Assembly (NCBI GenBank): GCA_008632985.1
Contig: QPGO01000088.1
Coordinates: forward strand, 248,001 to 312,000
Direction of reading: 5' to 3'
DNA length: 64,000 nucleotides
Origin: Psammoneis japonica
Taxonomy: Eukaryota
The notes beneath the pieces were generated by a model. It was not told the DNA's origin. It saw nothing but the letters and a program-made list of their open reading frames with translations, and ran no database searches. Positions 2,173 to 61,100 of this stretch are shown here, piece by piece. A program made the position numbers and the translations under genes. Position 1 is the first letter of the stretch; each line of letters begins with the position of its first letter.

Positions 2173-3360
2173 TTTATATAAATTGAACAATTCGTTTTTT
2201 GAAAGCTACTGGCTTTGTTACGGTAGAGCGCCTTACACAGAATTCCCGAATGTAGCTAGCTGGATTCCCCGAAGGATGAGTGCGACGTCGAAGTAGAAGT
2301 GCAACTCGAGTCCCATTCAAGAACACTCGAAACTGCGATGACCAAGAAGATCCGGCCATGTACCGTAGGACCCGGGGCTCTACCGTAGATGAAGATGTGA
2401 TGGATTTGGCACACGATGCTCGCAAAGGCATGTCAGCTTACATTCAACCGTCGAAAAAAGACTCAGAGAAGAACTCAGCGAACAAAGGCTAAAACTGATG
2501 ACACGTCTGTGCAGTCTCTCTGCTCAACAGGCACTGTGGGCACTGTGGAAATTACAGAGCAGAAGCTGTGTGATCCAACTAAAAGCCGGAAGGAGCAAAG
2601 GACATGACAGCTCAATTCAGGGTGACAACTGCTGGATGGTGGAATGGAGACTGGCTGGTGACTGAATGGAGGACACAGAGGACCAACACAACAAAAAAGA
2701 GTGGTGGCACACATCTGTCTGAAAAACACACAAGAAAGCAAATCTGGTGATGGTGATGAGACCTTGCAAAATGTCTCCAGCGCTGTTTTCAAGGCATTCA
2801 ATGTGCTGTGTGCTGGCACTCAATGTGATGCAAAGAATGCAGACCTGGGTCATGACATGTCCAGGGCAGCCACAACTCATTTGTTGATGGACTGAGTCAT
2901 CTCAGTCTCAACCCACCTTTGCTTGGAAACCAACTGCTGTGTGACCCAAGAGTTGCAAAACGTGCCAAAAGTTTGCCCTCTGCATGAGGTTTTCTTGGCA
3001 GAAGCAAAGGAGCTTGAAAGAATCCCCGCCAGCTTGGAAAAATGAAAGCTGAGCAGCAACAGGGAAAATGCCTGTTGCAAAAAGCTCACATGATCAGAAG
3101 AACATTCCACGCAGTCTTCCCGTGGGGGGGGAAATTCCACACAGTCTTTCCGTGGGGGGGGGGAAGGCATCCAGACAGCTGATTTGCTGTGAAAACACAA
3201 GCAGTGCTCCAGAGTGTCATTCCAAAAGCAATTGACCACACAGCAGCATCACATCCAGCAAGAAACATCAGAGAAGAATCACCCACTCACAATGCTTCTG
3301 CTGGTGTGGACCACACATGCAACCAACTGACACCACACATGCAACCAACTGACAAAGAAA

Positions 3361-3561
<201 letters not shown>

Positions 3562-6500: not shown

Positions 6501-8469
6501 TAGATTTGCAATGTTTTGGTTTTGTGGCTTGGCATCTTGTTCAGAGTTGACCCATTTGTTTGGAAGAGCTTCAGCTCAACTCTCTCTGTTGAGTGTGTTT
6601 TTTGGTGTTTGTGCATCTCAGGCACCACACAACTCAGCTGCCAATCTGTTGTTTGCGCGACAGTGGTGCAGCACTGTTGCAATCCACTCTGTCCTCATTG
6701 CATGACTGACAACAACAAAAAGACTCTCACTTCAAAAGAACTTCTCATTGGACCAGCTCCCTTTTGACAGAGACAACACAATGACAAACTTGAATCCTTT
6801 CCTTCCATCCAATGTCAATTTGCACTCTGGAGCCCATCTCATCATGTCAAACAGCAGTCCCTGCAGTGGCCATGTTGTTGTTCAATCCCTGTCATCATTC
6901 ATGCTTCCTGCTTCCTGTTGCCGCAAGTGCACATCAATGACCAACTCAACCTCATCATCACATCACAGTCATTTGACAAATTCCAATGTCAACCCAGATC
7001 TTAGCATGGGTCAATCTGCACTTCATTCAACACCACTTTGAAGCTGTTGATTGGTGGCAAATGTGCTGCAAACATTTTTTGGGATGTCAAGTCATCTGGG
7101 CCAACATGGTTGCAAATTGATTTTGTGTTTTTGCTTTGGTCCGTGATTGCTCATTGCACTCTGTTTTGGCTCTGTGGCACAGCAGATTTCTGCTGTTGCA
7201 CACCAAATTGTGTCCACTGTCTGTGCAGCTCTTTCTCTGTGAGTGCACCAGCTTTGTCTCTTGCTGAAGATTTCAGAGGAATGTTCAGATGCTGTGCTTG
7301 TCCAAGTGTCAGCACCAACTTGCTTGTTAAATCCCACGTGGCTTGTGGTGGGAACCTGCTCAGGTTTCAAACCCAAAGACCACACCAAGAGTCCCACAGG
7401 GAACACCAACACCATGCAGCAAGCATCTTTCATGCATGAAAAATCTCTCAACAATGACATCTTGCTGCTGCAATGGCTGTCATTCCTGTTGAGATGGCAG
7501 ATGACACTGGCCATGTGTCTGCATGTGGGGGACACAATGCAAAGTTCCCACATTGTTTCCAGCATGAACAAATCCATCTGTTTTCCAACCAATGGCACCA
7601 CACACAGCACTGCAATTGTTGCTGTAGAACAACGCTGAATTTGCTGTGGAGAATCTTTCCATTGGAAAATTTTTTGATTGCCAAAGCTGCCTCTGACAAT
7701 TTGAAACTCACCTCCAGAGATGACCATGAGTGCAGATGTTTTCAGACATGCCTGAAAGCTCTGTCAATGAAGAAGACCAGGTGCATCTTTGTTGTTCAGC
7801 TTCCAAGTGATGAACACTGGCTCAAGTTTGAAAGGGGCATGCTGCATTGCCTGTCAAGGGAGAGGAGCTCAGCAATCTTGATTTGTCTCAATCGTTTGCA
7901 CTCAGCATCTTCATCTTGCCAAGTCACACTTGCAATGCAGAATGACAAGAATGAGACAAGCCATTGCATTGATCTTTTTTTAGTCACAAGCACATGAGCA
8001 ATGCCATGAATGCATCATTGTTTGATTTCATTTCTTCTTTAGAGTCGGATTGGTTGCATTGCCACAAGGAGAAAACACAGACAGCACTTCTTTTGAAGAA
8101 GATCTTCACTTGTTTCTTGTTTCCATGCAGGACAAGTGCTTGACAGAATCAACACAGAACCATCCAACATGGCATGCAGAGCACCGGCAAGAAATGCAAC
8201 CATGGCACTGCTTTTTCTTGCTTGTTGATCTTGGACGCATTGTGGTGGAAGCACACAGAGCCGCTGGTTCTCCTGACAATGAAAGGCAAAAAATGTGGTG
8301 CACTGGTGCAGGACAGGCGACAAATGAAAATGCAATTTCTTGCAAGAAAAATTGTGGAACAATGAAAAAGATGACAAAGAAAGTGGTTTCTGCAAGGTGA
8401 TGCAGGGACGGATGAAAGTGCAAAACACACACAGAAACCATCATCCAGACAGACCACCACTGTGATTCT

Positions 8470-10065
8470 CCTTGCAAGTGGTGGCACCCAGTTTGGAAGT
8501 TCTCAAGTCTGCTGCTGTTTTGGGCACAACAAGACACAAGGCCACAATGCCACAAGATCAAACTTGCAATGCCCAGCCACACTTCTCAAAGTGCTGCCTG
8601 GTGGCATTCACCAGCAGAGACCAACAGCATCATCTGCTGGCAGTTCTTGTTGGGTTGATTGGCAACATCATTGTGGGGCCCCTGCACTGGAGCTGGGAAA
8701 GTCAAGTCTGCTGCTGCTGTTGGTTGGGGACAAGATGATGTGGTGCCAGCACAACACCACAACATCAACCTTGCAGTGCTCAACCACACAGTTCTCAAAG
8801 TCACTCCTCAGTGCCCTCAGCTTGCAGCTGTCAGGTTGGTTGGTGCCACCACAGGGACCTTTTGCTCTGGTGTTTGGAGGTTCCTCAAGTCTGATCCTGT
8901 TCAAGACAAGGCAACATGTGGCCACAGCACCACATGGTCAGCCTTGCAATGCCCAACAACAGCTCTTGAACAAGTCTCACCCTGGATCTGCCAGATGCCA
9001 CCAGCATCCTCTGCCAGCAGCTGTCTCAGGTTGGTTGGCACTGTCATGTGATCCTTTCACTCTGGAGTTTGGAAGTTCAAGTTGGCTGGGGACACAACTC
9101 AACAACACCAACCTTGCAACATCCAGCTGCAGCTCTCAAAGTGGTGTCACCTGGGGTCTGCTGGAGACCGCCAAAGCCCTCAGTTTGCAGCTCATCAGGT
9201 TGGTTGGTGCTGCCATGGGATCCCTGTGCTCTAGAGTTGGGAAAGTCAAGTCTGCTGCAATTGGTAAAAAGGTGACATGGGGCCACAATGCCACCAAGAT
9301 CAACCATGCAATGCTCAACCACATTTCTCAAGGTGTGGCCTCTGGGCCCACCACCAGACACCACAAGCATGCTCTCAGCTTGCTTTTGTCAGGGTCCATC
9401 ATGATGGGGCCCTTTCACTCTGGAGCTGGGAAAGCTCAAGTCTGCTGTTGTTGGGGAGACAAGGCAACATGGGGCCACAGCATCACAAGATCAGTCTCTT
9501 GCAATGCCCAACAACAGCTCTTAAAGTGTTGCCTGTGGCCTGCCAGATGCTGCCAGTGTTCTGAGCTTTTGCAGCTGTTGGGTTGGTTGTTGCCAAGATG
9601 TGGCCCTTCAACTGTAGAGCAGGGCTGGGAAAAGTTCAAGTCTGCTCATCCTGTTTGGACAAGATGACATGGGGCCATGACCACACACAAGACAGGATTT
9701 GCTTGCACTGCTCAACCACGGTGGCTGTTGCAGCATCACCTGGGGTCTGCAAGAGACCACCAGCACCCCCTCAGCTTGCTGTTGTCAGGTTGGTTGGTGC
9801 TGTTGTGATGGGGTCCTTTGTTCATTCTGGAGTTGGGAGTTTGAAGTGTGTGCTTCTGGCTGGGAGGGTGCAACAGGGCACCACAACTCCACAACACCAG
9901 CGATGCACTGCCCAACACTCAGCCACAGTTCTTGGAGTGTTGCCTGGGTCCACCAGAGACAGCCAGTGTGCCCTTGGCCTGCATTTGCTTGTTCTTGGGT
10001 TGGTTGGTGCCATTGTGGGGCCACTTGACTCTGCTGAAGCTGAAGAAAGCTCAAGTCTGTGCTGA
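8470..10065. repeat. Degenerate tandem array, about 9 units of ~170-210 bp
   Basis: Recurrent motifs GGAGYTGGGAAAG(C)TCAAGTCTGCTG (~8490, 8689, 8876, 9064, 9232, 9422, 9622, 9829, 10041) and CAGCTGTCAGGTTGGTTGGTGC in each unit. Confidence 0.85.
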
Positions 10066-12949
10066 CCCACTGGCTGGAAACAAGACTGCACTGGCATGGG
10101 CAACCACTTGCCAGGGAGGAGAAACATTGCAGGAGGTGCTGCAGCAGCAGTGCCCCCATGTCTCTGGGTGCTGGCTCTTTGCAGGCACACATCCAGCACC
10201 ACGGGGTTGTTCTGCATGTTTGGATCAGCTGCAAAGATCAGCTGCAAAGATCAGCTGCAACAGCAGGCCTGCAGACACAAACAAACTGCAGCACAGACCA
10301 GCACAAATGTGAAAATTTCATTCTTGACAAGGGCCAACTGAGATCATAAAAACTGAGATGCAAGCCTTCTTCAAAAACAGATGTGCTGCATCTGACCAAA
10401 ACAATGATCAACACCCAGCTGCAAAACAAATGAGAGCTCACAACCAAACTGCATTGGCAATGAAGTCCGACAAAAAGAATCACACAGGCAACAATGACCA
10501 GGCCACCTGGCTCATCTCTGTGGCAAAAAGGCACATCACCGCCACACAAAACAACACAAAAACACAGGAAGATGCTTCCAAGCAGGACACAGACAATGAC
10601 AACATTGCAAAGCGGCACCAACAATGCCCAGGACTCTGCACACGCTAACAAAGAAATGCCATGGGAAAGGAAGAGGTCAGAAGTGTGACATGGGAGCAGG
10701 CAGCTTGAAGGAAACAACAACATTCCTTTTGCACTTTTTTGTCAAAAAAGTTGACAAAAGCAGCCAAGGACAAGAAATGAAGTGCTGCAGCATTGCACAC
10801 AGGCAAGCAGAAATGGCAGCATTGTGCCACACTTGCCAAATGAAACATGCCAAACTGACAATTTCTCTGCTGTCTTTTGCCAGGGATTTTGCTTTCACAT
10901 TTCACAATGAAGCACTGTCACAAAAACTGAATCTCTTTGAAACATGAAAGATTGGAGTGCACTGGCATGATGACAGCACACAGCCACGAGCACCAAGAGA
11001 TGCAAGACAGACTGCAAGAGACAACGGGAGACAGACAATGGGACTGTGGCAGCCTGAAAAGCAAAGAGAGCAAAGGCAATGGAACAACAGCATGGGGTGA
11101 GAGCATGAGGGCAGGCACCAAATGTTGAACACCACCAGGGCAAAAAGCAAACACCTTTGGAAAACAAAATTGCAAAATGCACGCCAGCTGACAAGTGACA
11201 AGCAAGCCACTCAAATTGTCAGCGTGCTCCAGCAAATGTGAGCAACAACAATTGGTTGGGTCAACTTGTTTGTGCATGTGCACAGAAATGAACCATGTTT
11301 CATTCATTGTGGTGGTTTCCTGTTTTGCCAATTTGGCTGCTGATTGACACTCCAACCTTCACAGTCATTGCACAACTGTGGCCAAGTTCAAAAGAAATCT
11401 CATCAAGAGCCTGCATGCTGTGAGACCAAATTTCCTTGAGAGTCTGGTTTCCTGCTTTGCCAATGCAGCCAATTGTCAAAATTGATCATTCACAATGAAC
11501 AAGCACTTGGCAAGAACACAGGCTTCTTCTTGTTGAACAAACCTCAACTCTGAACAAGAGCAGCTGCATTTTCCAGATGTTGGTGCAGCCAGCACAAACT
11601 GTGAGATTTTTCAACAACATGTTGGCCAATGCACACATCTGCTGAACATCATGCAGAGCTGTCTGGCCACTTTTTAACACAGTCACAGCAGATGGTGACA
11701 AAGAGACATGAGTCATCACAGCTGAGATGCACAACAAGCCCCCCATTGAGCAATTGTTGGTCATGTTGGCAGGGCTTCTAAATTTTCTCTTTTTGCACCC
11801 AAAAAACTTCTGCCAGCTTTTCAACCTGACATCAACACAACTTGCAACTTTCTCCAGTGGGAGAAGCACCTCAGCATGTAGGAGGACCACACATGCAATC
11901 CAGCACTGACCACACTTGTGACACATGGCACACCACACACCCCACTGCATGCTGCAGCCAGGAAAAAGAACCCCCTGTGCTGAAGTTGCCACTTGTCAGC
12001 TCAGGCACTCCCCCTTTTTCTTTTGTTCCACCTTCAACCCCAGCAACCTGTGGTCAACTTCTCCCACTTTCAACCCAAAAATGAGCACAAAGGCTTGCCC
12101 TCATTGACACACAATTTCTGGCCAGTGGCTGGAGATGCTCTTTCTTCTTTTTGCTCCAAAACTCCCTCCCTTTGATCACTGTCACTGACTTCAACAAACC
12201 AAGGGTAGCTCCCACCCCAGCAGTGCATTTGGGGTGAGATCAGCAGGCCCAGCAAAGGCCCAAGGGCCACTGCAGCACCACTGTGGGTGTCACCATGCTG
12301 CTCTTGCTGTTGCTCATTGGTGGCAGCAGTGTGTTGTGTCTCATGGTGTGGGGTTTTTCCTTCAATTGAGGTCATTCTCAATGAGTGCAGTTCACTGCAT
12401 CATTGCAATTTTGGCCCATCCAAGGGAAAGAGTGTGTTTGATGTCAGAGTGTTTGTGGCAAACCAGCCAGACTGACAAATGACACAGTGCACATGTGCTG
12501 CATCTAAAAAATGTCTCTTGCTTGCCTGCACAGGTCCAGCAGCAGGGCCCTGCGGCACACATCCATGTCATGGCAAAGTCAGCAATCCCAAATCTGCCAT
12601 CCACCCACAACAACAAACCAGTTCAATTCAACTCAATCTTAAAAATTACACAGCCCTTGCCAACTGCTGCCTGCCATGAGCTTTTTCACAATGCCTGATG
12701 TGCTGTTCAATCCACAACCATGGACAGGGTCAGAGCACATGTGCATGACTGAACAAGTGCAGCCCCACATTTGCAGTTGTGGGCAGAGACACTGCACAAC
12801 CAAAATGCCCAATTGAGATCTCAATCAGTGTCAAGAGAAGCAATGCCCAATTTTGCCACCAATGCTGCTTCCAGCCAATGCCATTTGCAGCCTTGATCTT
12901 CTCCCAGAATTTTTTCCATTGGCCCAGTGAACCACCTGGCAAGTTGGTG

Positions 12950-14060
12950 GTGGGAGGAAGGACAGTTGCAAATCTCTCCACACTCCTCTTTGACATGTCC
13001 ATCCAGAGTGCTGTGAGTTTGTAAAAGATTTTTGGATGCTGCCAAGTTGTCTGCACTCACTCAATGTTCCCACACATCCCAGGCAATGTCCTGCAAGTGC
13101 AGCACAATCAGAGTGGATGTGCCCATCACAGACCCATGTTGCATTGCTCCAAATGTTTGCAGCAGTGCTCTTGTTGTGTGTGAGCCCACTTGACAACCAG
13201 AAATCCATGAGCAAAGGAGCTGTTGCCAGCCATCTGTTGTGCCATGCATGCCTCTGTGACATGTCTGCACTCTGATTGGGTTGCTGGTGGAGGACTCTCT
13301 TCATGCCATGATGCAAGCAAACACATGGCTGCTGTTTTTGTGTCAGGGTGTGTGTGTTGCTTCATCAACCATTCTTCCAAGCCCTTGACATTTTCTCCCA
13401 AAGCTCTTGGGCTGCATGGGACTTGCAACGCAATGCATGGTTGATGTCTGTTTTCATCCGCACCACATTGCGGGTAAACTGGACTTTCTGTCCCCCCCCC
13501 ACCTGCACCGCAGGTTTCCATTTGCAGAAATGAATCCAGCTGGCCACTTTGGTTGCCAAAAGGTTGGGCAGCATTGCACTGCTCTGCCCAGTGCCATCAA
13601 GTTGATCTCAGCATGGGACAGTTCCACTCTGAGTTTTTTTGTCCAGTGGTTGGAAGGAGGTGGGCCATGTGTGTGATCCAGAAGTTGGGTCTTGTCCCAC
13701 TGTGTCATTGGAATTCCTCAAAGAGCAACTTCCCAAGTTTCTTGGGGCACGTCAAATGGCTCCAAAGCAGGCATGCTTGATGAGGCTTCCCAGCATTCTT
13801 TTTTCCAGTGAGTTCATTTCCACATTCAGCACTTCCAAACAGCTCAGTTGGCTGAGGATCAACTCCTGGTTGTGGTGTCCTTTGATCTGAGCTGGTGCAA
13901 CAATGATTGGAAGATCTTGCATCACACATCTGATCAGGTGGATTTGATCACAGTTGGTTTCTCTTAGATGGCAGTTGCAGTGGTTAAAGAAACTTGTCTG
14001 AAGAGCTGAGTCACAATCACATCCCTCTTCCGATGCAACAACAGGCCTTGCACATGCGTC
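12950..14060 (-). mobile_element. Decayed non-LTR retrotransposon (LINE) fragment with RNase H-like region and C-terminal Cys/His region
   Basis: Frameshifted peptides GCDCDSALQTSF...DLPIIVAPAQIKGHHNQE...LEVLNVEMNSLEK (RNase H-like xCDxxSAL / HxKGHQD), PQCGADE...HALRCKSHAAQELWEK...LEEWLMKQHTHPD, and DIAWDVWEH. Family assignment is from recalled motifs only. Confidence 0.6.
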
Positions 14061-14731
14061 ACAACTTCCAAAGAATTTCAAAGATGCTGCCCAATTCACC
14101 GCAGTGAGCACTCTGGTTGATCTCCTTGCCTGGCATTTGATTTGCTCCTTGACATCAGGAAGAGTGGCCTTCCAAAGAGACCAGTGTGATGGCCACTGTT
14201 GCCACAGTGTCCTTGATCCTTGTCCACTTCCAACCAGTCCAGCTCTACATCAAGATTGCGCATGGTTTCATTCTGCTCGAGGCTGTTCACACGCGCTGAA
14301 ACCAGTTGCTTGCTGGTCTCGAGGCTGCCATTTGCATTGCCCAACACATCATCAATGACCTTTCTTGCATCTTTCACTTTTTCCAACCGCTCTTTCCAAC
14401 ATTGGATGGTTCCTTTTGGAGCCTTGGGGAAGAGAGAAAGAAACGAATCCAAGACTTTGTCGTCATCGTGTGTGTGTTCACTGTCTGCATCTGCAGCGGC
14501 GGTGGTGCTGGTCATGACGACATGCTGACTGGTGCTGTTGGCACTCCCCCCCCCCCCCCCCCCGCCACTGCCTTTTTCCAACTCGAGAGCAAGTAGAATC
14601 ATCGTTGCTTTCGAGATTTTGTGTCATGTTGGAAGTTGCCATGATGACTGCGATGAGTGTGGTGCAGGGTGCACGAAGAGAAGACACCGGTGGGCTGACC
14701 AAGGGACGGGATTGCACTGGATTTCTATGAG

Positions 14732-14981
14732 GAAATCAGTGCTGACATGACAACATCAAAAACCGTCAGCTCCATGGAGCTCCTCAGATGCCATTGTCTC
14801 AGAATGTGGTGGGGGGCATGACCCGGTCTCAAGGCCACATGAGCACAAGTTTGCCTGACAAATGAAAATGTGTTTGAGACTGGGTCATGCCCCCCATTGG
14901 ATTTTGAGACAATGGCATCCAAAGAGCACCATGGTGCCTCGTGCTTCACCATGTTGTTTTGTCATCAAAAGGACAGATTTC
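14732..14981. repeat. Imperfect inverted repeat, MITE-like
   Basis: Left arm GATGCCATTGTCTCAGAATGTGGTGGGGGGCATGACCCGGTCTCAA (~14787-14831) matches the reverse complement of TTGAGACTGGGTCATGCCCCCCATTGGATTTTGAGACAATGGCATC (~14874-14919); weaker pairing extends outward. Confidence 0.75.
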
Positions 14982-15189
14982 AGACTGTTTTTGCTCACGA
15001 ATCATGTCAGCAATTCAGTCGGCAAGAACCCAAAAGTTTCCCTGTGTAGAAAATGCACCAATGGTCTGATTGTCTTCCGCTTGAATGGACCAAAATGCCA
15101 ACAGCACTCTTCATCACAACTCGTCGCCACCTGCTGAGGCCACAGCAGCAGTTGCAATTTTGATGAGAGAGCAACATTCGCCATCACAC

Positions 15190-18100
15190 TGTGGCTGCCA
15201 TCCCTCCTGCAGCTGCCGGCGGTGCACCTCCAGCGCTGCCCAAAACACATCACGACAAATGGATGGCCCAAGGAGATCACTTGGGCAGGGAATGTGCCGA
15301 CCTCTTCAGACACTGCGGCGCCACGGTTCCTGCCACCGTGCCTTCTGCCCTCCAAAGGCCTTCCTTGCTTTGGTTCATCACGGAGCAGGGTGTTGCATCA
15401 CCTGTGTCCACAGGCCCTCTGTGTGCATTCGTGACCCGGCAGACACCTCCCCTTGGGACGGACATGCACCTTGCTTCCAGGACAACATGCTGCCCGGGAA
15501 CTTCATCACTGTTCTCAAATTCCCCAACATGCCGTTCAATGCCATCGGTCCTCAGGTGGTGCCCACCGCAGCCAACATGGCCGCCTTAGAAAGCACGTCA
15601 CTCAATGACAATGATTTGATCCCACTGCAGACAGGCAGCGCACTGGATGCTGATGCCACTTGTGTGCCTGCTTGATCCAAGTGCCACATGCCTGTTTGCA
15701 CCTCATGCTCACACAGGACCTCATGCTGCTGCAAGCTTGCGCGGGAACTCGCAGGAGTGATCCAAAATGAAGGTCATGCAGGAGACCTCAGCCTTCTCAT
15801 GGACTGGCCACATGCAGTGCTCACTGCACATGCCACTGCCAATCTGGACCCGGTGCACTGCCCAGGTGACCAAGCCACCACCTGCCTCCACCAGCCATGG
15901 ATGCAAGCCTGCAAGAACACCGTTGGCAGATGCTGCTGCAGGACTTGCCCACATTGAACACTGCAGCCATCAACAACACCAACTGGGTGCCAGCATTTGC
16001 CAATGTCATCCGAGCCGATGCCGCGCGCAACAAAGCAATGCATGCTGCAGCTGCAGCTGCGGCCGCAGTGCCCAAGATGCCATTGGAAGTGTTCCTGCAA
16101 AATGCCACCAGTGTGGCTGCTGCTGTCGAGTGCACCAGATGACATGGCCTTGCCAGACCTGTGCCAGACGTGGGCGAACAGCACCAAGGCCGAGTGACAT
16201 CGATGCTTTGCACGCACCCTGGATGACAGGATTTGAACAAGATTTTAGTTTGTCACACATGATTGTGTGTGCTCTCAGTTCCGCGTGCGTCACGCGATGT
16301 AGTTTGCTTTCCGAGCCACAGAGCTCACAAGAACAACAACAGCAGCACCAACATCATGACACCAGTCTTTCGGCTCCTGTGACGGTCTCTGCATGGAGAC
16401 TCATCTGCTGTTTAGACAGCAGCAAGGAGTCATTGTTTTCTTCCACCCAGTCATCTTCATTTTCTGTCAGATTGACAGTCTTGCTCTTTGTTGTCCATTG
16501 AGCGTTCATCATCGTCATCGAGAAATTTTTCGACGACGCGCACCGTTGGCGGTGGAAGCACACATCTACCTTCTTCACTGCTGGATGCTGGATTAAATCT
16601 GCATGTTTGGATTTATCCGACACCTCCCATCGTTGGACACATTTGTTCAACGGATGTTTCTTTGGCCAGGAATTCCTGAATTCTCAGACATCTGAGATCC
16701 CGGATTCCTTGCAGTGGATCCTGCCAACACATCCGCACGCGTTCATGTGCACACAACACAAATCCCTAACTCTGGCTCTGCTCCACACATGCCAAGTCTA
16801 CTGCCTTGCATCTGCACCGGATTGCTGGTCTTCAAATTGCCCAACCTGGCTCTCAATGTCCACCGACGTGATGAACCCGTTGCCACCGACACTGTCTGCT
16901 CCAACACCCCTGCCATTGACTCTGGCTGCACCAGTGCCCAGCTCTTTGTCAGCACGGAATCTCTCATCACCGACGTGCATGGCACCAAAACTGACAAAGA
17001 ATTTGTCAATGCCCTCGAAGACAACATTCACAATCGTGGTGCCCCATCCAAGCTCATCAGCGACCGTGCTCAGGTTGAGATCAGCAACAAGGTTCTTTGC
17101 ATCCTTCATGCCCTCTTCATCTCTAGTTGGCAAAGCAAGCCCCATCACCAGCATCAGAATTTTGCTGAACGCCGCCACCAAACTGTGAAGACCATGGCCA
17201 ACACCATCATGGATCGCTTCGGTTCCCCGGCTTGCACCTGGCTGCTCGCCCTGATGTGCGTGTGTTTGTGCTCAACCACACGGCATCTGCCAAGCTCCAC
17301 TGGCGTGCCCCCACCAAGGTGCTGTCCGGCTCCACTCCTGACATCAGCCCGCTCCTCCACTTTCAATGGTGGGAACCCATGTGCTGCCACCTGGATGATT
17401 CTGACTGGCCGTCCGAATCCCATGAATTGCGTGGTCGCTTCATTGGCATCGCCGAACACGTTGGTCACCAAATGACATTTAAGATTCTTTCTGACGACAC
17501 TCAGAAGATTCTCTGCCATTCCAACGTGCACTCTGCCCATGATCCGTCTGCTCCAAACCTGCGTCTTGATCCTCCTGACAAGGAATCTGCTGACTCTGTC
17601 ATTGAATCCCGCCACGACTCCAAGAATTCGCCAGATTCACCAGATGGGGAGGCGATCAGGATGCCCAAAATGCCGGTCTTTGACCCCGAGGACATCACAG
17701 GACGCACCTTCCTCATGAAGCCACAAGAGGATGGACAACGCCACAGAGCCCGCATCGTCTAAGCCATTGAGGACCACGACTGGAAAATCGGAGGCAATCC
17801 TGAACTGGTCAAGTTCATTTGCTCCATCAACAATGACGAGTGCGAGGAAGTCCCAGCCTGCAACGACATCATGCACCACATTGAGCAAGAAGACGAGGAC
17901 TCAACTCTCTGGAAGTTCCGACGCATTGCATCTCACGAAGGACCATTGCGACCCCATGATCCCTCTTGGAAAGGCTCAAGCTACAACGTCATGCTTGAAT
18001 GGGAGAATGGGGAGATCACGTCCGAACCCCTTGCCATCATTGCCAAGGATGACCCCGTCACCTGCGCCATCTACGCGCGTGAGCACGGCCTTCTAGAAAC

Positions 18101-19900
18101 CGAAGGATGGAGACGTTTTCGCAAGATGGCACTTCGTCAGAAGAAGCCATTCCGCATGGCCAACCAAGCCAAGTTGCGCTCCTTTCGCTCTGTGCCATGA
18201 TGCAAGCATGGGCATGAAGTGCCATGGGACTACAAGCATGCCATGGCCCTTGATGAGTGCAACGGCAACCGCAAGTGGGGAGACACAACGGACCTCGAGA
18301 TGACTCAACTTGATGAGCACGAGGTCTTCCACGACTGCGGACACCACAAGGATTCCAGTGCTCCATCAGGACACAAGAAGATCCGGGTGCATCTCGTCTG
18401 CGATGTCAAACATGACGGACGGCACAAAGCAAGGCTTGTTGCTGATGGACACCTCACAGACGTGCCCGTCAACAGTGTCTGTTCCGGAGTGGTGTCCCTC
18501 CGTGGCCTGCGAATGATGACATTCCTGGCCGAACTCAATGAACAAGAGACCTGGGCCACTGACATTGGGAATGCCCACCTTGAAGCTGCGACCAAGGAGA
18601 AACTGTACATCACAGCAGGCCCCGAGTTTGGTGACCTGGAAGGACACATCCTTGTCATCCACAAGGCCTTGCATGGACTCCGCAGCTCCGGCCTCAGATG
18701 GCATGAACGCTTTGCCGATTGCTTGCGTGCTGAAGGCTTCTTCCCATGCAAGGCCAAACCCGACATCTGGCTGCACAGGAATGGCACGGGCTCAGGAGCC
18801 TGACGCGGCATCCCGCATTGCACCCATCGCATCCAAGGAGCTCTGTGAGATGGTCCTCCAAGGCAAGGTTGCACAGCACGTCCACCAAGCAAATGACTTG
18901 TCCGGCGGCGTGTCTCCCTTCACATGTGGGTTCTTCATGACTGGCCAAGGATCCTCAGTGCAAGTCTGCACGGAGTGCTGCAACCTCTCCCTGGCTGGAA
19001 ATCTCACCCCCATGGTTGCGGAACAAGAGGAGTTCTGCACCAAGGACACACCATTGTTGATGTCCACATGCCACTGTGGCAGCATGCTCCAGGGCACCAG
19101 CTTGGTTTTGGATGTCATCCAAGGTGAGAACCACCCGCGTGCTGCAGCCTTCCGTCAGTTCTGTCTGGAGGACTGGCACAACATGGTCGACCCACTGGAG
19201 CAACCCAGAACATTGTTGGGGGAAGGCAACATCCCACCCAGCATTTGCCGAGAGGTGCAGATGCTCGCTGCAATTCATGGTGACCTTCTTCCCAGCAGTG
19301 CAATGGCAGCTGCATCTTTGTTCACCATGCATCCGGTCTCACATCCTCATTGAACACCAAGTCTGTTTCTCTGCTGTCCAAAGCACGGGTCTGAGCAAAG
19401 CAAGCACATCACAAGACCATGGCTGTTCTGGATCACGGCATGATTGTCCAATCTTGCCTTGCCAACAGAAGCACTTTCAAAGCCAGCCAATTTGTTTCAC
19501 ATGCCAATGGCTCCCAACAATGCACATGCTTCTGTGGCACAAATGCTCATCTTCAAAATGGAGCTGCAGCATGTTGACTTGGTTCAGCACTCTTGGTGCC
19601 ACTGGGCTTTGTTCTGCCAATGTCTGCACTGGCTGCACCATCCCACACCAGCACTTGCATGATCCGCACATGCTGCAATGTTGTTCTGTCCATGTTTTTG
19701 AGCTTGCAGGAAGGCACGAAACTTCTGCACAATGGCAGCAATCTCTCATTGTGATGGCATGCCTTCTGGGGCTCCAGCAGCACCCACGCCAGTGGCAAGG
19801 TCTCTTTTGGCCCTGAGTCAGATGAGCTCACCCAAGTCCTCCAACAAGTCAGCTCTGGCCGTGGACACTTGACCATCTGCAAGTCAGCCATTGTCTGCTC
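15190..19900 (+). mobile_element. Decayed gag-like ORF of a retroelement (possibly DIRS/Ngaro-type), interrupted at ~16225-18783
   Basis: Peptide ...LPDLCQTWANSTKAE*HRCFARTLD ends at ~16224 and a compatible frame resumes at ~18784 as ARAQEPDAASRIAPIASKELCEMVLQG...NDLSGGVSPF. Superfamily is a guess from recalled similarity. Confidence 0.4.
16830..18783 (+). mobile_element. Ty1/Copia (diatom CoDi-like) pol fragment: integrase core to N-terminal RT, pseudogenised
   Basis: LNVHRRDEPVATDTV..., RGAPSKLISDRAQVEIS, HQNFAERR (integrase); WKFRRIASHEGPL, VMLEWENGEITSEPL; KIRVHLVxDVKHDGRHKARLVADGH, WATDIGNAxLEA, ALxGLRSSG, PDIW (RT). INT-before-RT order; stops at ~17760 and 18198; frameshift ~17270. No LTRs seen. 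Confidence 0.92.
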
Positions 19901-20815
19901 CATCCACGCCACCATCAACAGCTGTTGACATTCTTGATGTGTCTTTCTGCCAACTCCACCACAACATCTGCTGTGCCATGCACCAAGCCACTTGCTTCTT
20001 CTGTGCTCCAAGAACTTTTGCACAGTTGCAGCAAAGTCCTGGCAACAACAAATGGCTGCATTGATTGCTCCATTGATGCCAACTTTGATGATCCCTGTTG
20101 CGGCCAAAAAGACTCTCAAAACCTGGCAAACATCAAGTCTCACACCAGACATTTCATCTTGTGGTGCAAACAAGCCAATGTCCTCTTCTGTGGGTTTCTG
20201 AGCTGCAGATCCAGGTTGCACTTTTTGCTGTGGAAGCCAAGCATCTGCCACCACTGGCAACAGTCAGTGCACGACTTGATGCTGTGACCAGCAAAATTTT
20301 GAAACGGCTTCAGCTTCATGCACCACTCAGGTGCAAGAGCTGCAAGACACAAAATGCCACCAAGTCCAAGGCCTTTCTGCTGATGTAAAAGATGGAACAA
20401 TCTTGTCTTCAATTGTGCACAAGGACAGGCAAGTGTGCCTCAAGCTCTGAAAAATGCTGTTGGAGCTTTTGCCATGGTGCCAGCAAGCACACTGGCATTC
20501 CTTGTCACCACTGGTTCTGCCTGAGCTTGCAGGAACTGGTTCCCAGCTTGCTGATCAATTTACAAAGGGACTTGCTTTCAAGTCTGAATCTGGTCGGTTG
20601 ATCTTTTTGGTGGTGGTTTGGTTGCGTTGAGAGGGAGAGTTGACGTCTGTCTTTCATCCTTTTCATCCAAGCGCGACAAGGCGCGTTTCAAATTCGAAAC
20701 TCCTCCAAATTCCCCCATCAAATCTCTTTCAGTTACAATTTTCAGTCAGTACCTTATGCAAAAACAAGCTTTACTAGTTTACAACCTTGAGCTTCTGCTC
20801 ATTCAATGTCATAGG

Positions 20816-22414
20816 TTACATATCAAGTTCATGATCTTCGTGGATCGTTGCAAGGTGATGTTCGTCCTCTGAGTCTGAGGAGTCATACAAATCTATACTT
20901 GGGTCAGCAGATTCGGTGTCTTCACTAGCACCCGGCGTGGCATCTCCAGTATTGTCGTTTGCGTTAGGCTTCAAGGGCAACGAGGCATCCTCATAGATAT
21001 GCCACTTTGCCTGCATGTGTAAACAATGAATCAGCACCGTTTCAATGAGTAAACTGAAACCTCGAAATGCAAGGTATGAAGTGTCAGTTGCATCATCTGC
21101 TCTCACCTCGTTATTCATATCGATGTTCCGATCCTTTCCCTCCTTCACAGCGGCCTTTGAATTCCCCACGGGCAGCTCCGTTTCGTCGTCGCTTGCGCAC
21201 ATATCAACAAAGATGCGAGACAGCTCCGTTTCGTCGTCCTTCACGTCGTTTGCGGCAGGCTTCAAGGGCAGCGAGGCATCATCACCGACATGTCCCTTTG
21301 CCTACATGTGTAAACAACATACCAGCACGTTTCAATGAGTGAACTGAAACCTTGAAATGCAAGGCATGAAGTATCAGTCGCATCATTTATACTTACCTCG
21401 TTATTCACATCGTCGTTCCCATCCTTTCCCTCCTCCACGTCATTTGAGACAGGCTTCAAGGGCAACGAGGCATCATTATCAACATACCCCTTTGCCTGCA
21501 TGTGTAACAATAAACCAGCACCGTTTTAGTGAGTGAATTGAAACCTTGAAATGCAAGGTATGAAGTGTCAGTCGCATCATCTATACTTACCTCGTTATTC
21601 ATATCGGCGTTCCCATCCTTTCCCTCCTCCACGTTATTTGCGGCAGGCTTCAAGTGCAACGAAGCATCATCATCGACATGCCCCTTTGCCTGCATGTGTA
21701 GCAATAAACCAGCACCGTTTTAGTGAGTGAACTGAAACCTTGAAATGCAAGGTATGAAGTATCAGTTGCATCATCTTTACTTACCTCGTTATTCATATCG
21801 TCGTTCCCATCCTTTCCCTCCTTCACGGCAACCTTTGAATTCCCCGCGGGCAGCTCCCTTTCGTCGTCGCTTGCGCACAGATCAACGAAATTGAGAGACA
21901 GTTCCGTTTTGTCGTCGTTTGCACACAGATCAACACAATCGCGACGCTGCTCCATTCTGTTGTCGCTTGCGCATCGACCAACATCAAAAGGCCGCTCTGT
22001 TTCGTCGTCGCTCGCGCATAGATCAACAAAATCGCGAGGATTTTCTGGAACTTCGGGAACATATGCTGTAACGTCGTCGTACGAAACCCGAGGAATCATG
22101 CACTCTGGTGCAGGATGTTTCTGCGGGGCTGTGTGATGAAGTTTCAATTCGACGGCCAACCGATTGAGGTCGTCCTCTCGGTTTTCCCTTTGTAACATGG
22201 CAACGTGTTTCTTCAGCCGTTCATTGTCCTTGACTTTAGGCAAAGCTTCAATTAGTGACGGGTCGGAGAATGCTGTCGATTGCTTTCCACTGCGACTTGA
22301 TCGCATTACCACATTCCGCTTTTCTACAAAATCCTTTCGAGCTTGTTGCACATATTCCTCGTCGTCCAGATGACGTAGAACCTCTTGTTCATGTCTGTCG
22401 TCCTCCATTGGCAT
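20816..22414 (-). CDS. Acidic repeat protein with multiple SIM-like (F/V)VDLCASDDE motifs; 5 exons
   Basis: ATG 22414; introns 21690-21784, 21496-21590, 21302-21396 (each 95 bp, GTAAGT...YAG) and 21011-21106 (96 bp, GTGAGA...CAG) restore one continuous frame with exons of 99, 99 and 195 bp. The 3' end may splice further. Confidence 0.75.
20966..21840. repeat. Intragenic tandem repeat; 194-bp unit = 99-bp exon + 95-bp intron; four related copies
   Basis: AGGCTTCAAG(G/T)GCA at 20966, 21257, 21451, 21645. Confidence 0.92.
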
Positions 22415-23315: not shown

Positions 23316-25017
23316 ATGATAAATCGAAATCGGACAAACCACTGCTTCACTTTTTCGGCATGCTGCGGTACTTTTCTAATCTTGTTGATGAGCATTCGGT
23401 GCGGGACCGAGGCGTCTCCGCCAATCTTCTCTGTACGAGGACCGTCAAAATTGATTTCTTCGTATTCATCCCTTTCGTACGGCTCACTGATAGAGGTTCG
23501 CGGAGGCGGCTTCTCGGACGAAGATGACAATGTCGGGGACCTGGCAGATGCTCTTGACGAAGACGTCGACAGCGACAGTACAGAAGAAATCGAAGAAAGT
23601 GCAGATGCTGAGAGTACATTGGTCTCTATTACAAGGAAAGTGGTCATTGCATTTGGAAAAACGACGTTTGCGACGTTATCTGCGTTGAAACGTGCCATCG
23701 TCGCCGGTTTTCAAGCGGGCGAAGAAGGTGTGACAGAGGAAGACGGAGAGACCGAAGAAGAGCCATCAGCGTTGTCAAAAGTCGTGAAGGTATTGAAGCG
23801 CATGTGGAAAGCCGCATTTGCTTCGCCAGAATCTACTGTAGTGGAAGAAAAAAATAGCTCGTCGGTTAAGAAACAAAGGAGCGAGCAACATCAAGAAAGA
23901 ATGAAACCTAAAGTGACAGATTTTGGAAGCTATTTGGCAAATACCTACAACGTCGATTTGGATCACGAGGACGACGAGAATAGAACACCAGTCATTGGAG
24001 GAACGCTCGGCGATGCTCTCCGTGAGGCGCGTTCACAGGCTAAATTATTGGTTGTGTTCATTCCTGCGTCACAACCCGGCCGTGGCAGAAAGACTAGTTC
24101 CGATAAACTTGCAATAACGAGTCTCCTGAGCAAGGAAGTGTCGGATGCAGCGAAAAAGCGCGCAAAGAAAAAGGTAGATTCTGGCTCGTACAAACTCTGG
24201 GGGGCAAAGGCGGGATCTCCCGAGGCAGTGACAGCAATAAAACGGCTACGCGCTAAACAACTAGGAGGAAAAGGAGACAAGCGTCCGATGTTGTTGGTCG
24301 CATATCCTGCACAGGTACGGCTCACCAGCACTGCTTTTCCAACCAAGTGTCATTTGCTCTCATGCGTTTCGTTTGTGTTGCATAAAGGTTGTGGACTCAT
24401 CAGGAAAACCAAAGTTAGTACCTCGTCTTGTTGCACAGCACCACTGCAGTCCACCCCCTTCCGCTGAATCAATGGCTGCATGGCTTAACGCGCTTCGGAA
24501 ACGGCACTCCAAACAGTACAGCTCCATGCAACACGAGCTAAAGGAGATAGAGCTATACAAAGAACGCCAGGAAGGATATCGAAGCAGCATCGTCAGTGAC
24601 TTACAGCGTCAAGAAGAGGAAAAGAAAAAAGAAGAGGAGAGGCTGGCATCCGAAGAGGCGGAGAGAGAACGGCTGGAGCAGTTGGAGCGACGGCGAGAAG
24701 AGTTGAAGGCTTCGCTTCCCGAGGAGCCAGGGAAGGAAGTTAGAAATGCAATAACAATTGCGCTACGATTTGCTGACGGACGCACGGGTCAGAGAAGATT
24801 CACCAACGATACTCAAATTGCTACCGTATTGAATTGGGTTGACGCTACGTATGAGATGGAACGTGAAACAGTGATTCTTACTACGATGAATGGGCAGAAA
24901 TCGTTTTCCTGGAAGGATTCCGAATTGGAATTCGGCGAAACGGGTTTGGGAAGAATGACTGGGCTTCGAGTGTCACAAGAAAAGAATGACACGGAAACTG
25001 AACCTCTTGCCCAGTAG
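23316..25017 (+). CDS. UBX-domain protein (UAS-like region, coiled coil, C-terminal UBX) with possible N-terminal signal
   Basis: Intron 24315-24387 (GTACGG...AAAG) joins the two ORFs in frame; LPEEP...ITIALRFADGRTGQRRF...VLNWV is a typical UBX start; hydrophobic N-terminus followed by VRGGG. Confidence 0.8.
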
Positions 25018-25093: not shown

Positions 25094-26460
25094 TTAAAGG
25101 ATTTGAGCGCCTACTTTGGCGACTCCCTCTGCCTTCATAAACTCTTCCCGTAAGCTGTAGATGTATTGCATTACTTCAATCTCGACAGGAGTCATCTTGA
25201 GAGTATTAAAGAAATCGACGTGAAGGACGACTCGTTCTTGTGATGTGTGTGTGTTCATAGTTTCGTGCTCGTATGTCGTATCATACAAGAGACACTCACC
25301 CTCCTCCCAATGCCTAGTTTCAGGTCCCACGCGAATGTACGCGGCGTCGCCTTTTCAGACAAAGAGCAGAAGAATTGTTTAGGAACAAGAAGAAAAAGTT
25401 GAAACCATATTCGTAGAAGTAGAGTTGTCCAAGATTACCTTCCGGGACCTGTATTCCCATTTGGCACGTCAACCACATGTTATTTCCATCTGTATGAAGA
25501 GGAATGCCAGTTTCTGGTTGCTGTCGATTGAACCCTGCTATTCTTCCAGCGAGGGGCACTTCAGAAAAGAGAGAAGGCGTGAGCGTTCTGTCAAGCGAGG
25601 ACCAACAAGGAATGAAAGCATCAAAGAAACGTACCAGTTTCCAAAATCTCAGTTGTTTTGGGACAAAGGTGATATGGAAAATCTGGTATGCGGTGTCCGT
25701 TATAGAAGAGAACGAGTGTTTTCCATCCACTTTCGTAGTTCATGCTTGTGACGGACTGGAAACGATCCTTTCCGCCCTGCTTGATGTCTTCGAGTAAAGC
25801 GTGGTATTCCTCACGAATGGTTTCAAAATTTTCAGTCAGAAGGCGACAGAGATTGAGTTCGTTCGGGTCATGAAAAGGTTTTGTTTCACCAAGGCCAGGC
25901 ATGTAAGCATGGATTTCTTGTTCAGGGCGGTATGGATTTGACACAAGTTCGTCTTCGAAAGGTACATTTGGATCCAACGTATGCCGAACAAAGCCGGCGA
26001 TGCGTGTCAGCTGATCATCTCGCACATTGGAGAAACGAGAACTAATGAGACTAGGCATAAGTTGCCAAAATGGATCAGCATCAGGAGAATTGGCTAGAGG
26101 GGAGTTCTCCACGGCCTGGCCAATGCAAGTTCGTGATGCCGCGGCCGCCAACGAATTCAACATGTCATCCTGTTCAGACTTTACGTACGGTTTGTTCGTT
26201 GAAGCCTGTTTCTTCTTAGCGACCTTCTTGTTCTTCTTCCGACCTGATTTCGACGAATTTGAACCGAAACCCCCACCAGCTCCACTACCGAATCCCTTGG
26301 CGTACAAAGGTGCGAGCGGAAACGAACACGGATTGGAAGATGATGTCCTTGTACTTAATTTGCTAGTGGGCAAGAACGCATGGATGTGACATAGGATTTC
26401 GCAGACAAAAGTCACGCGGCAAAGTAGAACGCAGAAGAATCCTCTACTGAAACGTAACAT
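25094..26460 (-). CDS. Aspartyl/asparaginyl beta-hydroxylase-domain 2OG-Fe(II) oxygenase, probably plastid-targeted
   Basis: Introns 25559-25634 and 25351-25438 give ...CPKTTEILETVPLAGRIAGFNRQQPETGIPLHTDGNN...IRVGPETRHWEEGECLLYDTTYEHET...ERVVLHVDF; presequence ...HIHA|FLP. Confidence 0.85.
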
Positions 26461-26694
26461 GGTTACGAGAGACTATTTCATCCACCTCTTATACTCGAGA
26501 TGTCAACAGCTCAGAGAGTAGAGAGTGACATCGTGCAACCAGAACGGGCCGCGGACGTCCATCGTCTTTTGCTGCGGGCGGACGGCACGGCGGAAGGACT
26601 GGGAATGGGATTGCTAGATACGCACGGTAGGACAGGCGCGAGCTAAGAAAAAACTTACTGGCAGATTCGAAAAATGGAAAGCTCTAAAACTGAT

Positions 26695-27660
26695 CAAGCA
26701 ACTGCTGAAGCTGTGACTTGGACAAGATCTTCATCCATGTCCTGCAATTCTTTGGCTTCCAGTTCTGTGTCCACCAAGAAAACAATCTTGCACCATCATT
26801 TCTCCAGCACCTTGTTGTTGTTGTTGAGCTTCTCCTCCCCGCCCCCCCACTGCAGGGGGTGCTGCACATCTCCACACACGCAACCCAGTGCAAGTGAAAT
26901 GACATGCAATCAATTTGACAAAAGAGATGGCTCATCAAGCTGTGACAGCATGGCTGCAAATGACTCCAGCTCTTGTTTGTTCACGTGTCAGCGCACAGCA
27001 TCCGGCTGGGCTGCCCCTGCCACTCTGCCAGCCGCCAGCAGGCCTGTTCCAGCTCCAGGTGATCCACTTTTCATCACGAGAGAGGCCGATTTTCTGCACA
27101 GTTTGGTGCAGTTGACTCCTTCGGCTTTGATCATTTCAAAAATTGAAAGGTGAGCGCGCACCTGAAAACACATGCAAAGTGCACACTTGCCCTTCGATTT
27201 GGCAAAAAACGGATTTGGAAAAAGTCAATTGCGCCAAATGCACAAATTGCCAAATGATGGGAATCGAACCCGCGCGGAGCACCTGGAGCTGGAACAGGCC
27301 AGCGGCAAAGCCATGTTTTGCATGATCTAATTGCACGTGAAAACAAACATTCACACAAGCAAAGGAACTCAATGCAAGAGCCACTTTTGTCGACAGAAGG
27401 GTGCAGAGATGAGAGCAGGGGGCAGAAGGGGGAGGACAAGAGAAACACACACAGGGGCCGGAGACGAAGCCGAAGTCGCTGAAGCTGAGCATCAAATGAG
27501 CTTCTCAGGAGGAGTGACAGTTTGAGCAGAGTCTGTGGTGAGTCATCTGAAGGTCAATCACGCGGCTGAGTTGACAGAGAGAGCAGGAGAGGAGACAGTG
27601 ATGATGTGGAGGCGAGATGCGATCATGGCGCAACGGCGCAACGAGGAATGCTTTTGCGCG
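26695..27660. repeat. ~1-kb TpA-depleted island (presumed transposon remnant) between two genes
   Basis: Roughly one TA in ~960 bp while CG is partly retained; flanks have normal TA content. Confidence 0.7.
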
Positions 27661-27938
27661 CACGTAAGGAGTCAGTCGCGCGGTCGGAGGGAGAAAACAG
27701 AAATCAAAAATGCGTAGGATTCTACGTGATTCTTTGGTACAGCATTACAAAAAATTGAACTTGTGCTCCGGCCTGTCGTCGCTCGTCGGTTGCCGACCGC
27801 ACAACCTAAACCGACCTGCTGAGCACAACACACGAAACACATCTCGCGGCGCACGCAACACCATCTGTGTAGTAGTTGGCTACATCTCTGTCTTTATAAC
27901 ATCCGAGTGTCTCTTCTCGTCGTATCAGCAGCAACAAC

Positions 27939-29716: not shown

Positions 29717-30104
29717 GCCAGGCCACGACGAGTTATTTGTAGATGCTGAAACGAGTTAACACAGCATGTCAATCCCAGTAACAATGCGTTTGTTTTCATT
29801 TTCGTTTCTCATTGACCAATCCAGTTGTGTGCGTTGTCGCTGTGCGATTTCACGCCTCAAAACCCTGACCAGGCTCTTATCATAAACTCGGGTATGGCTC
29901 TCATTTTATTTTATTATATATTTATGTACATTGGAAATAGATCATGAGCCACAAACTCGTACATTGTTATGCTGGATGTTCTGATCAGGGGGCTCTCAGC
30001 TACTACGGTGATTATCATTTTCATTCGGCGGCGGCAATGGCATGACTGTAGTCGCTCCATAAGACAAACGAGCTTCGTGAAAGACGTTGTATAACGAGAA
30101 AAAC

Positions 30105-61007: not shown

Positions 61008-61100
61008 TTTTGTTTGTTTGTTTGTTTGTTTGTTTGTTTGCCAATTCTGTTCATTTGTTTGTTCATTCAAGAGAGAGAGAGAGAGAGGAAGGAGGGGGGG
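61008..61100 (+). repeat. Short (TTTG)n and (GA)n microsatellites
   Basis: Visible directly. Confidence 0.85.

Follow-up and report, generated by a model that had tools for sequence, protein, structure and literature searches.

Results

A truncated Copia fragment in a diatom contig

We describe a stretch of 64,000 nucleotides from the diatom Psammoneis japonica (assembly GCA_008632985.1, contig QPGO01000088.1, positions 248,001 to 312,000), hereafter called the window, and in it the remains of a Ty1/Copia retrotransposon whose conserved tyrosines are systematically replaced by cysteine or histidine. The fragment lies in a domain depleted of the dinucleotide TpA. Depleted, transposon-derived domains of this kind make up about half of the window and are sharply bounded, and host genes occupy its middle. 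All positions refer to the window; the features are collected in Table 1.

Table 1. Features of the window in order of position (o/e, observed/expected ratio; aa, amino acids; RT, reverse transcriptase; LTR, long terminal repeat).
Feature	Position	Strand	Evidence and remarks
TpA-depleted domain around the Copia fragment	2581-20733		TA o/e 0.00-0.17
High-copy block	16137-18806		summed contig depth 3,000-76,000, against about 55-185 in the flanks
Copia polyprotein, part upstream of RT	16720-17268	+	tblastn, P0005 aa 802-974, 55% identity
Frameshift	17264-17265	+	frame switch between two tblastn alignments
Copia polyprotein, part in other frame, ending inside RT	17265-18785	+	tblastn, P0005 aa 974-1481, 65% identity
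In-frame TAA stop	17760-17762	+	variable column: E 21, D 13, K 12, R 10 of 71 homologues
In-frame TGA stop	18198-18200	+	homologues K 40, R 27 of 71
RVT_2 (Ty1/Copia-type RT), PF07727	18357-18788	+	profile positions 8-159 of 244, 3' side cut off
UBX gene	24265-25017		Pfam
Asp/Asn beta-hydroxylase gene	25621-26472	-	Pfam
Island with one TA (979 bp)	26686-27664		CG partly kept; intergenic, between two minus-strand genes
Vps18/Pep3 gene	30081-32816		Pfam
2OG-Fe(II) oxygenase gene	44220-45218		Pfam
zf-MYND gene	45555-46661	-	Pfam
TA-free, CG-poor stretch	46830-47952		about 170 bp upstream of the zf-MYND gene
LTR element, partly mutated	47953-52686	+	4.7 kb, early stage
Left LTR	47953-48319	+	367 bases, 92.7% direct repeat with 52320-52686
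Right LTR	52320-52686	+	direct repeat with 47953-48319
Second large depleted domain	52700-64000		TA and CG lost to about 62000

Judged from its sequence, 16720-18785 is a truncated and broken Ty1/Copia polyprotein fragment, a dead copy of a high-copy retrotransposon. The Copia assignment had been made in an earlier reading of this DNA, in the following referred to as the original prediction. It is borne out by the RVT_2 match in the frame 18201-18803 (E = 2.9e-14; 53.7 bits, cut-off 31.6) and by 1418 homologues of the read-through translation of 17169-18803 (stops as X), many of them intact polyproteins of some 1850-1900 aa with 55-65% identity. The best intact homologue, P0005 (1859 aa), aligns collinearly by tblastn, with aa 802-1481 along 16720-18785. 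Coding homology thus begins at 16720 and not at 16830 as predicted, and it ends at approximately 18785-18791. About 680 of some 1860 codons are left and both ends are cut; a tblastn comparison of 25 full-length polyproteins with the whole window gave no match outside 16720-18791. The frameshift represents one lost base, and contigs of the public sequencing run X1 carry an extra letter after 17264 (C in five, T in two). The TGA stop possibly goes back to a CpG-type change of CGA to TGA.

The part upstream of the RT is presumed to be the integrase region, as integrase is encoded before RT in Ty1/Copia elements. The original prediction had named the RVT_2 and rve profiles for comparison. The former is found; Pfam rve gives no match in 16720-17268, and none in the intact homologues at a cut-off as loose as E<=1. 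Those relatives of the element that carry a name belong to the diatoms Fistulifera and Nitzschia. With the diatom Ty1/Copia elements of the CoDi groups, the copy has in common the RVT_2 domain, long polyprotein homologues and diatom-labelled relatives. It differs in its reduced length, two stops, a frameshift and the lack of flanking LTRs: self-comparison of the window shows no direct repeat bracketing 16137-18806. The homologues retrieved here replace the CoDi label and the motifs of the original prediction, and the labels seen among the relatives were those of diatoms.

In run X1, 3883 contigs are at least 90% alike to 16137-18806, and the family is therefore high-copy. Of the 126 places at which its copies differ from the window copy, 113 show transitions. 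A search for further mutated copies by near-length protein comparison found none above 65% identity. The search for related loci with the window's own mutated protein as query returned no relative, and an alignment of the homologues was used instead. Directly upstream of the coding homology, 16137-16670 shows the highest summed depth (50,000-76,000), exceeding that of the pol part. It is possibly an LTR or another very high-copy sequence, joined to the fragment via an internal deletion.

Conserved tyrosines are replaced by cysteine and histidine

The conservation set consists of 71 intact homologues of at least 1700 aa, which define 322 columns of at least 80% conservation. The window copy retains 280 of these. 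Changes are concentrated at tyrosine: 11 of the 14 conserved Tyr columns are altered (C 6, H 4, W 1; Y kept in 3), compared to 31 of 308 columns of other residues, 277 of which are kept (Fisher p = 1.4e-8). The 25 columns with a Tyr majority read Cys at 9, His at 7, Tyr at 4, Phe at 2, Trp at 2 and Ile at 1 in the window copy, and the four surviving Tyr codons are all TAC. The systematic conversion claimed originally, together with its enrichment over other replacements, is therefore confirmed in 10 of 14 conserved and 16 of 25 Tyr-majority columns. Cys or His in intact homologues at the same places, which by its own terms would have contradicted the original prediction, is rare (30 of 1135 residues at the 16 columns).

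As an outside control, we used 80 related elements from metagenome DNA, retrieved with peptide patterns that are biased to intact copies. Of the 1280 cells that these loci contribute to the Tyr columns in question, 1199 hold Tyr, 3 hold Cys and 1 holds His. The contrast of Y>C/H in 10 of 14 columns in the window to 4 of 1280 cells in the related loci is highly significant (p = 2.8e-19).

Eight of the ten motifs that the original prediction listed agree with the homologues. Tyr is found in 63 of 71 homologues at the Cys of DTVC (16897), in 54 at the His of TDVHG (16978), in 51 at that of ERRHQ (17176), in 60 and 63 at the two Cys of WEPMCC (17382 and 17385), in 56 at GHKK (18372), and in all 71 at SVCSG (18480), GNAHLEA (18576) and KALHGL (18672). 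LVCD (18399) faces Phe in 40 and Tyr in 31. Two motifs are weak at the supposed Tyr, which occurs in 14 of 71 homologues at PACTW (17233) and in 20 of 71 at the Cys of KILCHSNVH (17514). In the latter motif, His 17517 and His 17529 replace an Arg that is present in all 71 homologues, which is a CpG-type change. The proposed reversion of 18198-18233, using only TA and CG ancestors, is compatible with the K/R-Y-K-Y-G-F/Y-E-V-P-R-D-Y of the homologues.

The tyrosine changes are half the story. Among the 42 replacements at conserved columns, 11 correspond to one TA>TG/CA event each and 15 to one CG>TG/CA event each (Arg>His, Val>Ile/Met, Glu>Lys and others), so that CpG-type replacements are as frequent as TpA-type ones. 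One is another single transition, and the remaining 15 are not explicable by one transition. TA or CG ancestors thus underlie 26 of the 27 single-transition replacements.

The direction of change is TA to TG or CA: Tyr is the ancestral residue in the 71 homologues and 80 loci, the sense strand carries both products in comparable numbers (9 Cys, 7 His), and the changes in an LTR pair of the same window (see below) are independent and later than insertion. With this, the direction fixed by the original prediction stands. Its reading as A>G is one of two equivalent descriptions, because TpA is its own reverse complement and an attack on A cannot be told from one on T.

Two of the metagenome relatives, L021 and L023, show CpG decay without loss of TpA: at a CG o/e of 0.14-0.15, Arg is replaced in 12 of 25 conserved columns and Tyr remains in 12 of 13. 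The two processes are therefore separable, and the TpA process is not general to the hosts of the Copia family, as far as a search favouring intact copies allows this to be read. A marine metagenome locus, L039, has the lowest TA o/e (0.35) of the 80 relatives and TG/CA raised to 1.41. It is not among the 25 loci with the lowest Tyr retention and may represent an early or mild instance in a different organism.

TpA depletion marks whole transposon-derived domains

The 1954 bases of 16830-18783 contain 8 TA, 95 CG, 172 TG and 201 CA. This is in good agreement with the earlier estimate of about 10 TA in roughly 2.1 kb and with the statement that CG is still common. Over 16720-18785, TA density is 4.8 per kb, compared to 22-77 per kb (median 52) in the 80 related loci.

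A composition scan in 500-base steps across the window reveals that the signature belongs to transposon domains of tens of kb and not to the Copia element alone. From 2581 to 14000, TA and CG are lost alike, and in the older parts TG plus CA have doubled. From 14001 to 19000, TA o/e is 0.04-0.17 while CG remains at 0.29-0.76; likewise, CG recovers (o/e 0.31-0.85) in 62000-64000, where TA is low. The edges of TA and CG loss coincide at about 2580, 20560-20734 and 46829-46846. At the last of these edges, the last TA (46829) and the last dense CG (46846) place the two boundaries less than 20 bp apart. The gene-rich DNA between 20.7 and 46.8 kb retains 36.9 TA per kb with a median TA spacing of 18 bp, and its intergenic DNA keeps TA, too. 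As an intergenic island at 26686-27664 illustrates, stretches of about 1 kb within gene-rich DNA can be affected as well. The island has neither a Pfam match nor a repeat partner within the window, and may represent a solo LTR or a small inserted sequence.

The losses and gains of dinucleotides balance. Per kb, old depleted DNA contains TA 3.4, CG 4.5, TG 113.3 and CA 119.8, whereas gene-rich DNA contains TA 36.9, CG 60.5, TG 72.8 and CA 69.8. TA is thus 11-fold lower, and a loss of 89.5 TA plus CG faces a gain of 90.5 TG plus CA. The same conversion is visible in repeats. Among the mismatches of repeats in depleted domains, TG-vs-CA doubles number 10 of 29, 14 of 53 and 15 of 108, as opposed to 0 of 36, 0 of 36 and 0 of 77 in repeats of the normal region. 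Apart from 16720-18791, nothing was recognised in depleted DNA with 14 single open reading frames (Pfam) and 25 polyproteins (tblastn).

In the 29.25 kb of depleted DNA, 91 TA survive, and their neighbours are unusual. ATAN/NTAT make up 4 of 91 survivors, compared to 456 of 1009 TA in normal DNA, while TTAA accounts for 24 of 91 versus 42 of 1009. This is only suggestive of a preference for the 3' neighbour on the adenine strand in the order T >> C > G > A.

Several repeats of the depleted domains were observed besides. Degenerate internal repeats at 8503-10012, 64-70% alike, lie in the old depleted domain and provide the 15 doubles in 108 mismatches mentioned above. An imperfect palindrome at 14769-14937 matches its own reverse complement to 74% over 175 bases. 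A purine-rich microsatellite at 3354-3573, reading (KERK)n in one frame, has copies 92-96% alike and an AT skew of 0.45 in its bin. At the edge of the domain, 20954-21919 holds a tandem array whose units, about 195 bp long, are 85-90% alike. A contig of a further run, X2, omits pieces of 95-96 bases at four places of this array, and its length or phase therefore varies between data sets.

An LTR pair records timing and order of the changes

The LTR element at 47953-52686 is only partly mutated. The sole protein hint in its interior is a weak RT_RNaseH match (E = 0.0029, 18.2 bits, below the Pfam cut-off of 24.8). Its two LTRs differ at 23 of 365 aligned bases, and all 23 mismatches are transitions. 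Fourteen of them form 7 TG-vs-CA doubles, 6 are TA versus TG/CA, 2 are CG versus CA, and 1 is of another kind, so that 22 of 23 fall on TA, CG, TG or CA steps. The two LTRs of an element are made from one template and are identical at insertion. Their differences hence arose later, in genomic DNA and independently in each LTR. The TpA change is a post-integration, DNA-level process that acts on both strands.

About 20 CG are left per LTR and there are only 2 CG differences, and the 7 doubles are therefore best read as TA ancestors that mutated independently twice. Counted in this way, TA events number about 20 in 34 visible site-copies, CG events 2 in about 42, and events outside pyrimidine-purine steps 1 in about 330. 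The TA rate is thus approximately 12-fold over CpG and, with that one event as the only reference, exceeds the rest by about two orders of magnitude. Both LTRs retain TA at four common sites. This suggests that the process is heterogeneous across TA sites, and a flank rule is likewise suggested. We also looked for strand-coordinated runs of TG or CA events in three series; there were fewer than expected, and none was significant.

Densities across the elements form a graded series. Per kb, the young LTR element has TA 19.6 and CG 44.4, with about half of its TA gone, the Copia fragment TA 4.8 and CG 47.9, and the old domains TA 3.4 and CG 4.5. TA loss is therefore fast and CG loss slow, and TA goes before CG. 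In accordance with this order, TA is lost and much CG kept in 14001-19000, 26686-27664 and 62000-64000.

Sequencing data reproduce the depleted DNA

Of the sampled words from 14001-22000, a fraction of 0.77 is present in run X1. Its contigs reproduce the TA-poor flanks over 564 bases with 0 differences and over 1311 bases with 3, at a word depth of about 55-185. Where run X1 disagrees with the assembly in the single-copy, depleted flanks, the changes are mostly of CpG type (12 of 29 listed variants), and 3 are TG/CA doubles.

Genes of the window

Host genes identified by Pfam span 23244-46661, with long frames and few introns. The closest named relatives of the Vps18/Pep3 gene are found in the pennate diatoms Nitzschia, Cylindrotheca, Mayamaea and Bacillariaceae, with about 50% identity. 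Gene structure and relatives mark the host as a diatom and speak against the chlorarachniophyte Bigelowiella natans, considered below, as the origin of this DNA. The start of the zf-MYND gene is approximately 170 bp away from a hypermutated domain.

Discussion

A localised TpA hypermutation after integration

The observations are best explained by a post-integration, DNA-level and domain-restricted hypermutation of TpA to TpG or CpA which proceeds alongside CpG decay. We assign a probability of roughly 0.8 to this reading, a figure that excludes the identity of the enzyme. The DNA of the Copia copy, like every transposon-derived domain in the window, was struck by this localised hypermutation after its integration. 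A change of TpA to TpG or CpA is an A:T>G:C transition on either strand, and in coding sequence it turns TAY codons (Tyr) into TGY (Cys) or CAY (His). A second process, about 5-15 times slower, converts CpG to TpG/CpA within the same boundaries, such that both jointly push all pyrimidine-purine steps towards TG/CA. Decay of CG to TG/CA is the expected result of the deamination of methylated CpG in silenced transposons.

The TpA process is probably enzymatic and targeted at silenced or foreign DNA. The simplest candidate mechanism, by analogy with the proposal made for the chlorarachniophyte Bigelowiella natans, would be a nuclear polynucleotide deaminase that turns adenine into inosine at 5'-TA-3'. 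Biologically, it may represent a genome defence that irreversibly disables transposons, resembling the repeat-induced point mutation (RIP) of fungi, with the opposite chemistry.

Several points weigh against this reading. The evidence consists of fixed differences; no de novo mutation was observed. Inside depleted DNA, where hardly any TA is left, no TA-type variant between the assembly and run X1 was seen, and the variants thus give no sign of ongoing TpA activity. Run X1 may stem from the assembly's own sample and is not an independent proof against a systematic sequencing error. The 80 relatives are biased to intact copies, and a missing signature there does not show that their hosts lack the process. 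In the LTR pair, the ratio to the background rate hangs on one mismatch outside pyrimidine-purine steps, and the four shared TA sites are more than a uniform rate predicts.

Alternative explanations

Among the alternatives, a decay of TpA without a dedicated editor fares best, but we consider it unlikely. A lesion or base modification would remain unrepaired or be misrepaired in silent, methylated chromatin and be fixed as T>C or A>G; candidates are a modified thymine mispairing with G, such as 5-hydroxymethyluracil, and an ultraviolet photoproduct at TpA. The common boundaries of TA and CG loss fit this idea, as if one chromatin state underlay both. In the palindromic TpA, T is as good a target as A, and the scarcity of ATAN/NTAT and abundance of TTAA among survivors could come from a modifying enzyme as well as from a deaminase. 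Such a passive process is difficult to reconcile with an 11-fold TA contrast across edges of tens of bases, with the TA kept in the intergenic DNA of the gene-rich part, and with an LTR pair that experienced about 20 TA events in 34 site-copies against 1 in about 330 elsewhere. According to the preprint text, the process of B. natans moreover switches on in some lines only, which is a better fit to regulation.

An artefact of sequencing or base calling, with modified TpA and CpG bases of heterochromatin being misread, appears very improbable. Modified motifs can give systematic consensus errors in some long-read data, to which the assembly and run X1, having no platform on record, may belong. 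Yet the k-mer contigs of run X1 match the TA-poor flanks almost exactly at a depth of about 55-185. A miscall would also repeat the same letter at homologous sites, whereas the two LTRs show TG versus CA at 7 sites and TA at 4, and TA loss is graded between elements.

Still less credit can be given to an ADAR-like A>I hyper-editing of the retrotransposon RNA before its reverse transcription. The fragment is a retroelement, and RNA-editing deaminases prefer A>G after U, as stated in the preprint on B. natans (10.64898/2026.01.13.699255). However, template editing yields one product only, whereas the sense strand of the fragment carries both (Cys 9, His 7). The LTR differences of 47953-52686 necessarily arose after integration, and the depletion spans domains of 979-18,000 bp without recognisable retroelement coding sequence. 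RNA editing before integration is thus contradicted by the LTR pair and by both sense-strand products.

Ordinary neutral decay or lineage-specific Cys/His residues of this Copia lineage can practically be dismissed: 15 of 42 replacements are not single transitions and do imply some lineage divergence, but the homologue and locus counts (30 of 1135 residues, 4 of 1280 cells), the restriction of 26 of 27 single-transition replacements to TA/CG ancestors, and a frame that also carries two stops and a frameshift contradict it.

Relation to known systems

To our knowledge, only two cases of transition hypermutation as a genome defence are textbook matter, fungal RIP and animal APOBEC, and the target of each is cytosine. 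RIP in ascomycetes, the closest counterpart in function, is an irreversible, transition-only hypermutation of transposons with a dinucleotide preference, which leaves sharp aberrant domains with replacements and stops. The domains described here are alike in the irreversible, transition-only and sharply bounded damage to transposon DNA and coding sequence. The chemistry is the opposite one: RIP is reported as C>T mainly at CpA, which raises TpA (PMC2621366), whereas here TpA is destroyed and CpA/TpG are created. With TpA falling 11-fold while CpA and TpG rise, the fungal RIP signature is absent. The Copia family is high-copy, yet the depleted flanks of the window copy are today at single-copy depth in run X1.

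Methyl-CpG decay accounts for the CG>TG/CA half of the changes, i.e., for 15 of 42 replacements and most of the flank variants between assembly and run. It cannot touch TpA, whose loss is faster here and precedes that of CG. CpG methylation of a diatom Copia element has been reported in the article that named the CoDi groups (Maumus et al. 2009, PMC2806351), whose text does not mention hypermutation by term search. Full-text searching of the literature gave no report of TpA hypermutation in diatoms.

Natural removal of TpA from DNA was first reported in 2026 for one chlorarachniophyte, B. natans, and two integrated viruses (Mettrop et al., bioRxiv 10.64898/2026.01.13.699255). As given in the preprint text, 231 of 302 new mutations in mutation-accumulation lines lay in two integrated viral regions. 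Nearly all were A>G or T>C, those all at TpA, at a rate about 1000x the background. The text further describes clusters poor in TpA and rich in CpA plus TpG in the genome, and it proposes, without proof, an ADAT2-like deaminase (10.64898/2026.01.13.699255).

As far as the preprint text goes, the likeness is close. In both organisms, the TpA process changes TpA to TpG or CpA only, acts on both strands, is local to foreign or mobile DNA, and leaves a long-term footprint of lowered TpA and raised CpA plus TpG. In the window, the first property is supported alike by the Tyr>Cys/His changes, the replacement classes, the LTR pair and the mass balance. The second follows from genomic DNA with TG opposite CA at 7 LTR sites and from Cys 9 versus His 7. 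The third holds within the window, with edges within tens of bases. Coding sequences low in TpA are enriched for reverse-transcriptase and DDE domains in B. natans.

The differences are likewise clear from the same text. B. natans is a rhizarian with integrated viruses, whereas the host here is a diatom (Stramenopiles) with LTR retrotransposons and whole transposon islands. Erasure is far fuller here, with TA o/e of 0.03-0.1 over tens of kb compared to a Rho of 0.45 in the viral region of B. natans. CpG decay runs alongside within the TA boundaries here, while diatoms, CpG and flanking bases are not mentioned in the preprint text by term search; its supplements may hold data on flank context. 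Finally, new mutations were measured in B. natans, and here there are fixed differences and a possible flank preference. The present case is best classed with the TpA hypermutation known from the chlorarachniophyte, as a much more saturated example from a diatom and its retrotransposons which runs alongside ordinary methyl-CpG decay.

Implications

From a biological point of view, it may be suggested that diatoms carry an active, chromatin-targeted DNA editor that converts TpA to TpG/CpA in transposons and silenced foreign DNA. It would work several-fold faster than methyl-CpG decay, prefer ATA/TAT, serve as a RIP-like defence, and be shared with chlorarachniophytes, being either old in the group of Stramenopiles, Alveolata and Rhizaria (SAR) or spread among marine algae. 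We regard this wider proposal as tentative and its chances as somewhat short of even.

The finding would extend the process to a major and experimentally tractable algal group. The signature is here close to saturation over tens of kb of transposon DNA, an LTR pair places it after integration, and its order with respect to CpG decay is given. The finding would also show the process acting on retrotransposons. Handles for the enzyme would be the context preference, the co-extension with CpG decay and young, half-mutated elements. For genome annotation it means that homology-based repeat detection is defeated, since no more than 2 kb were recognisable out of about 30 kb of depleted sequence. A natural A>G editor of double-stranded DNA would also be of interest to base-editing work.

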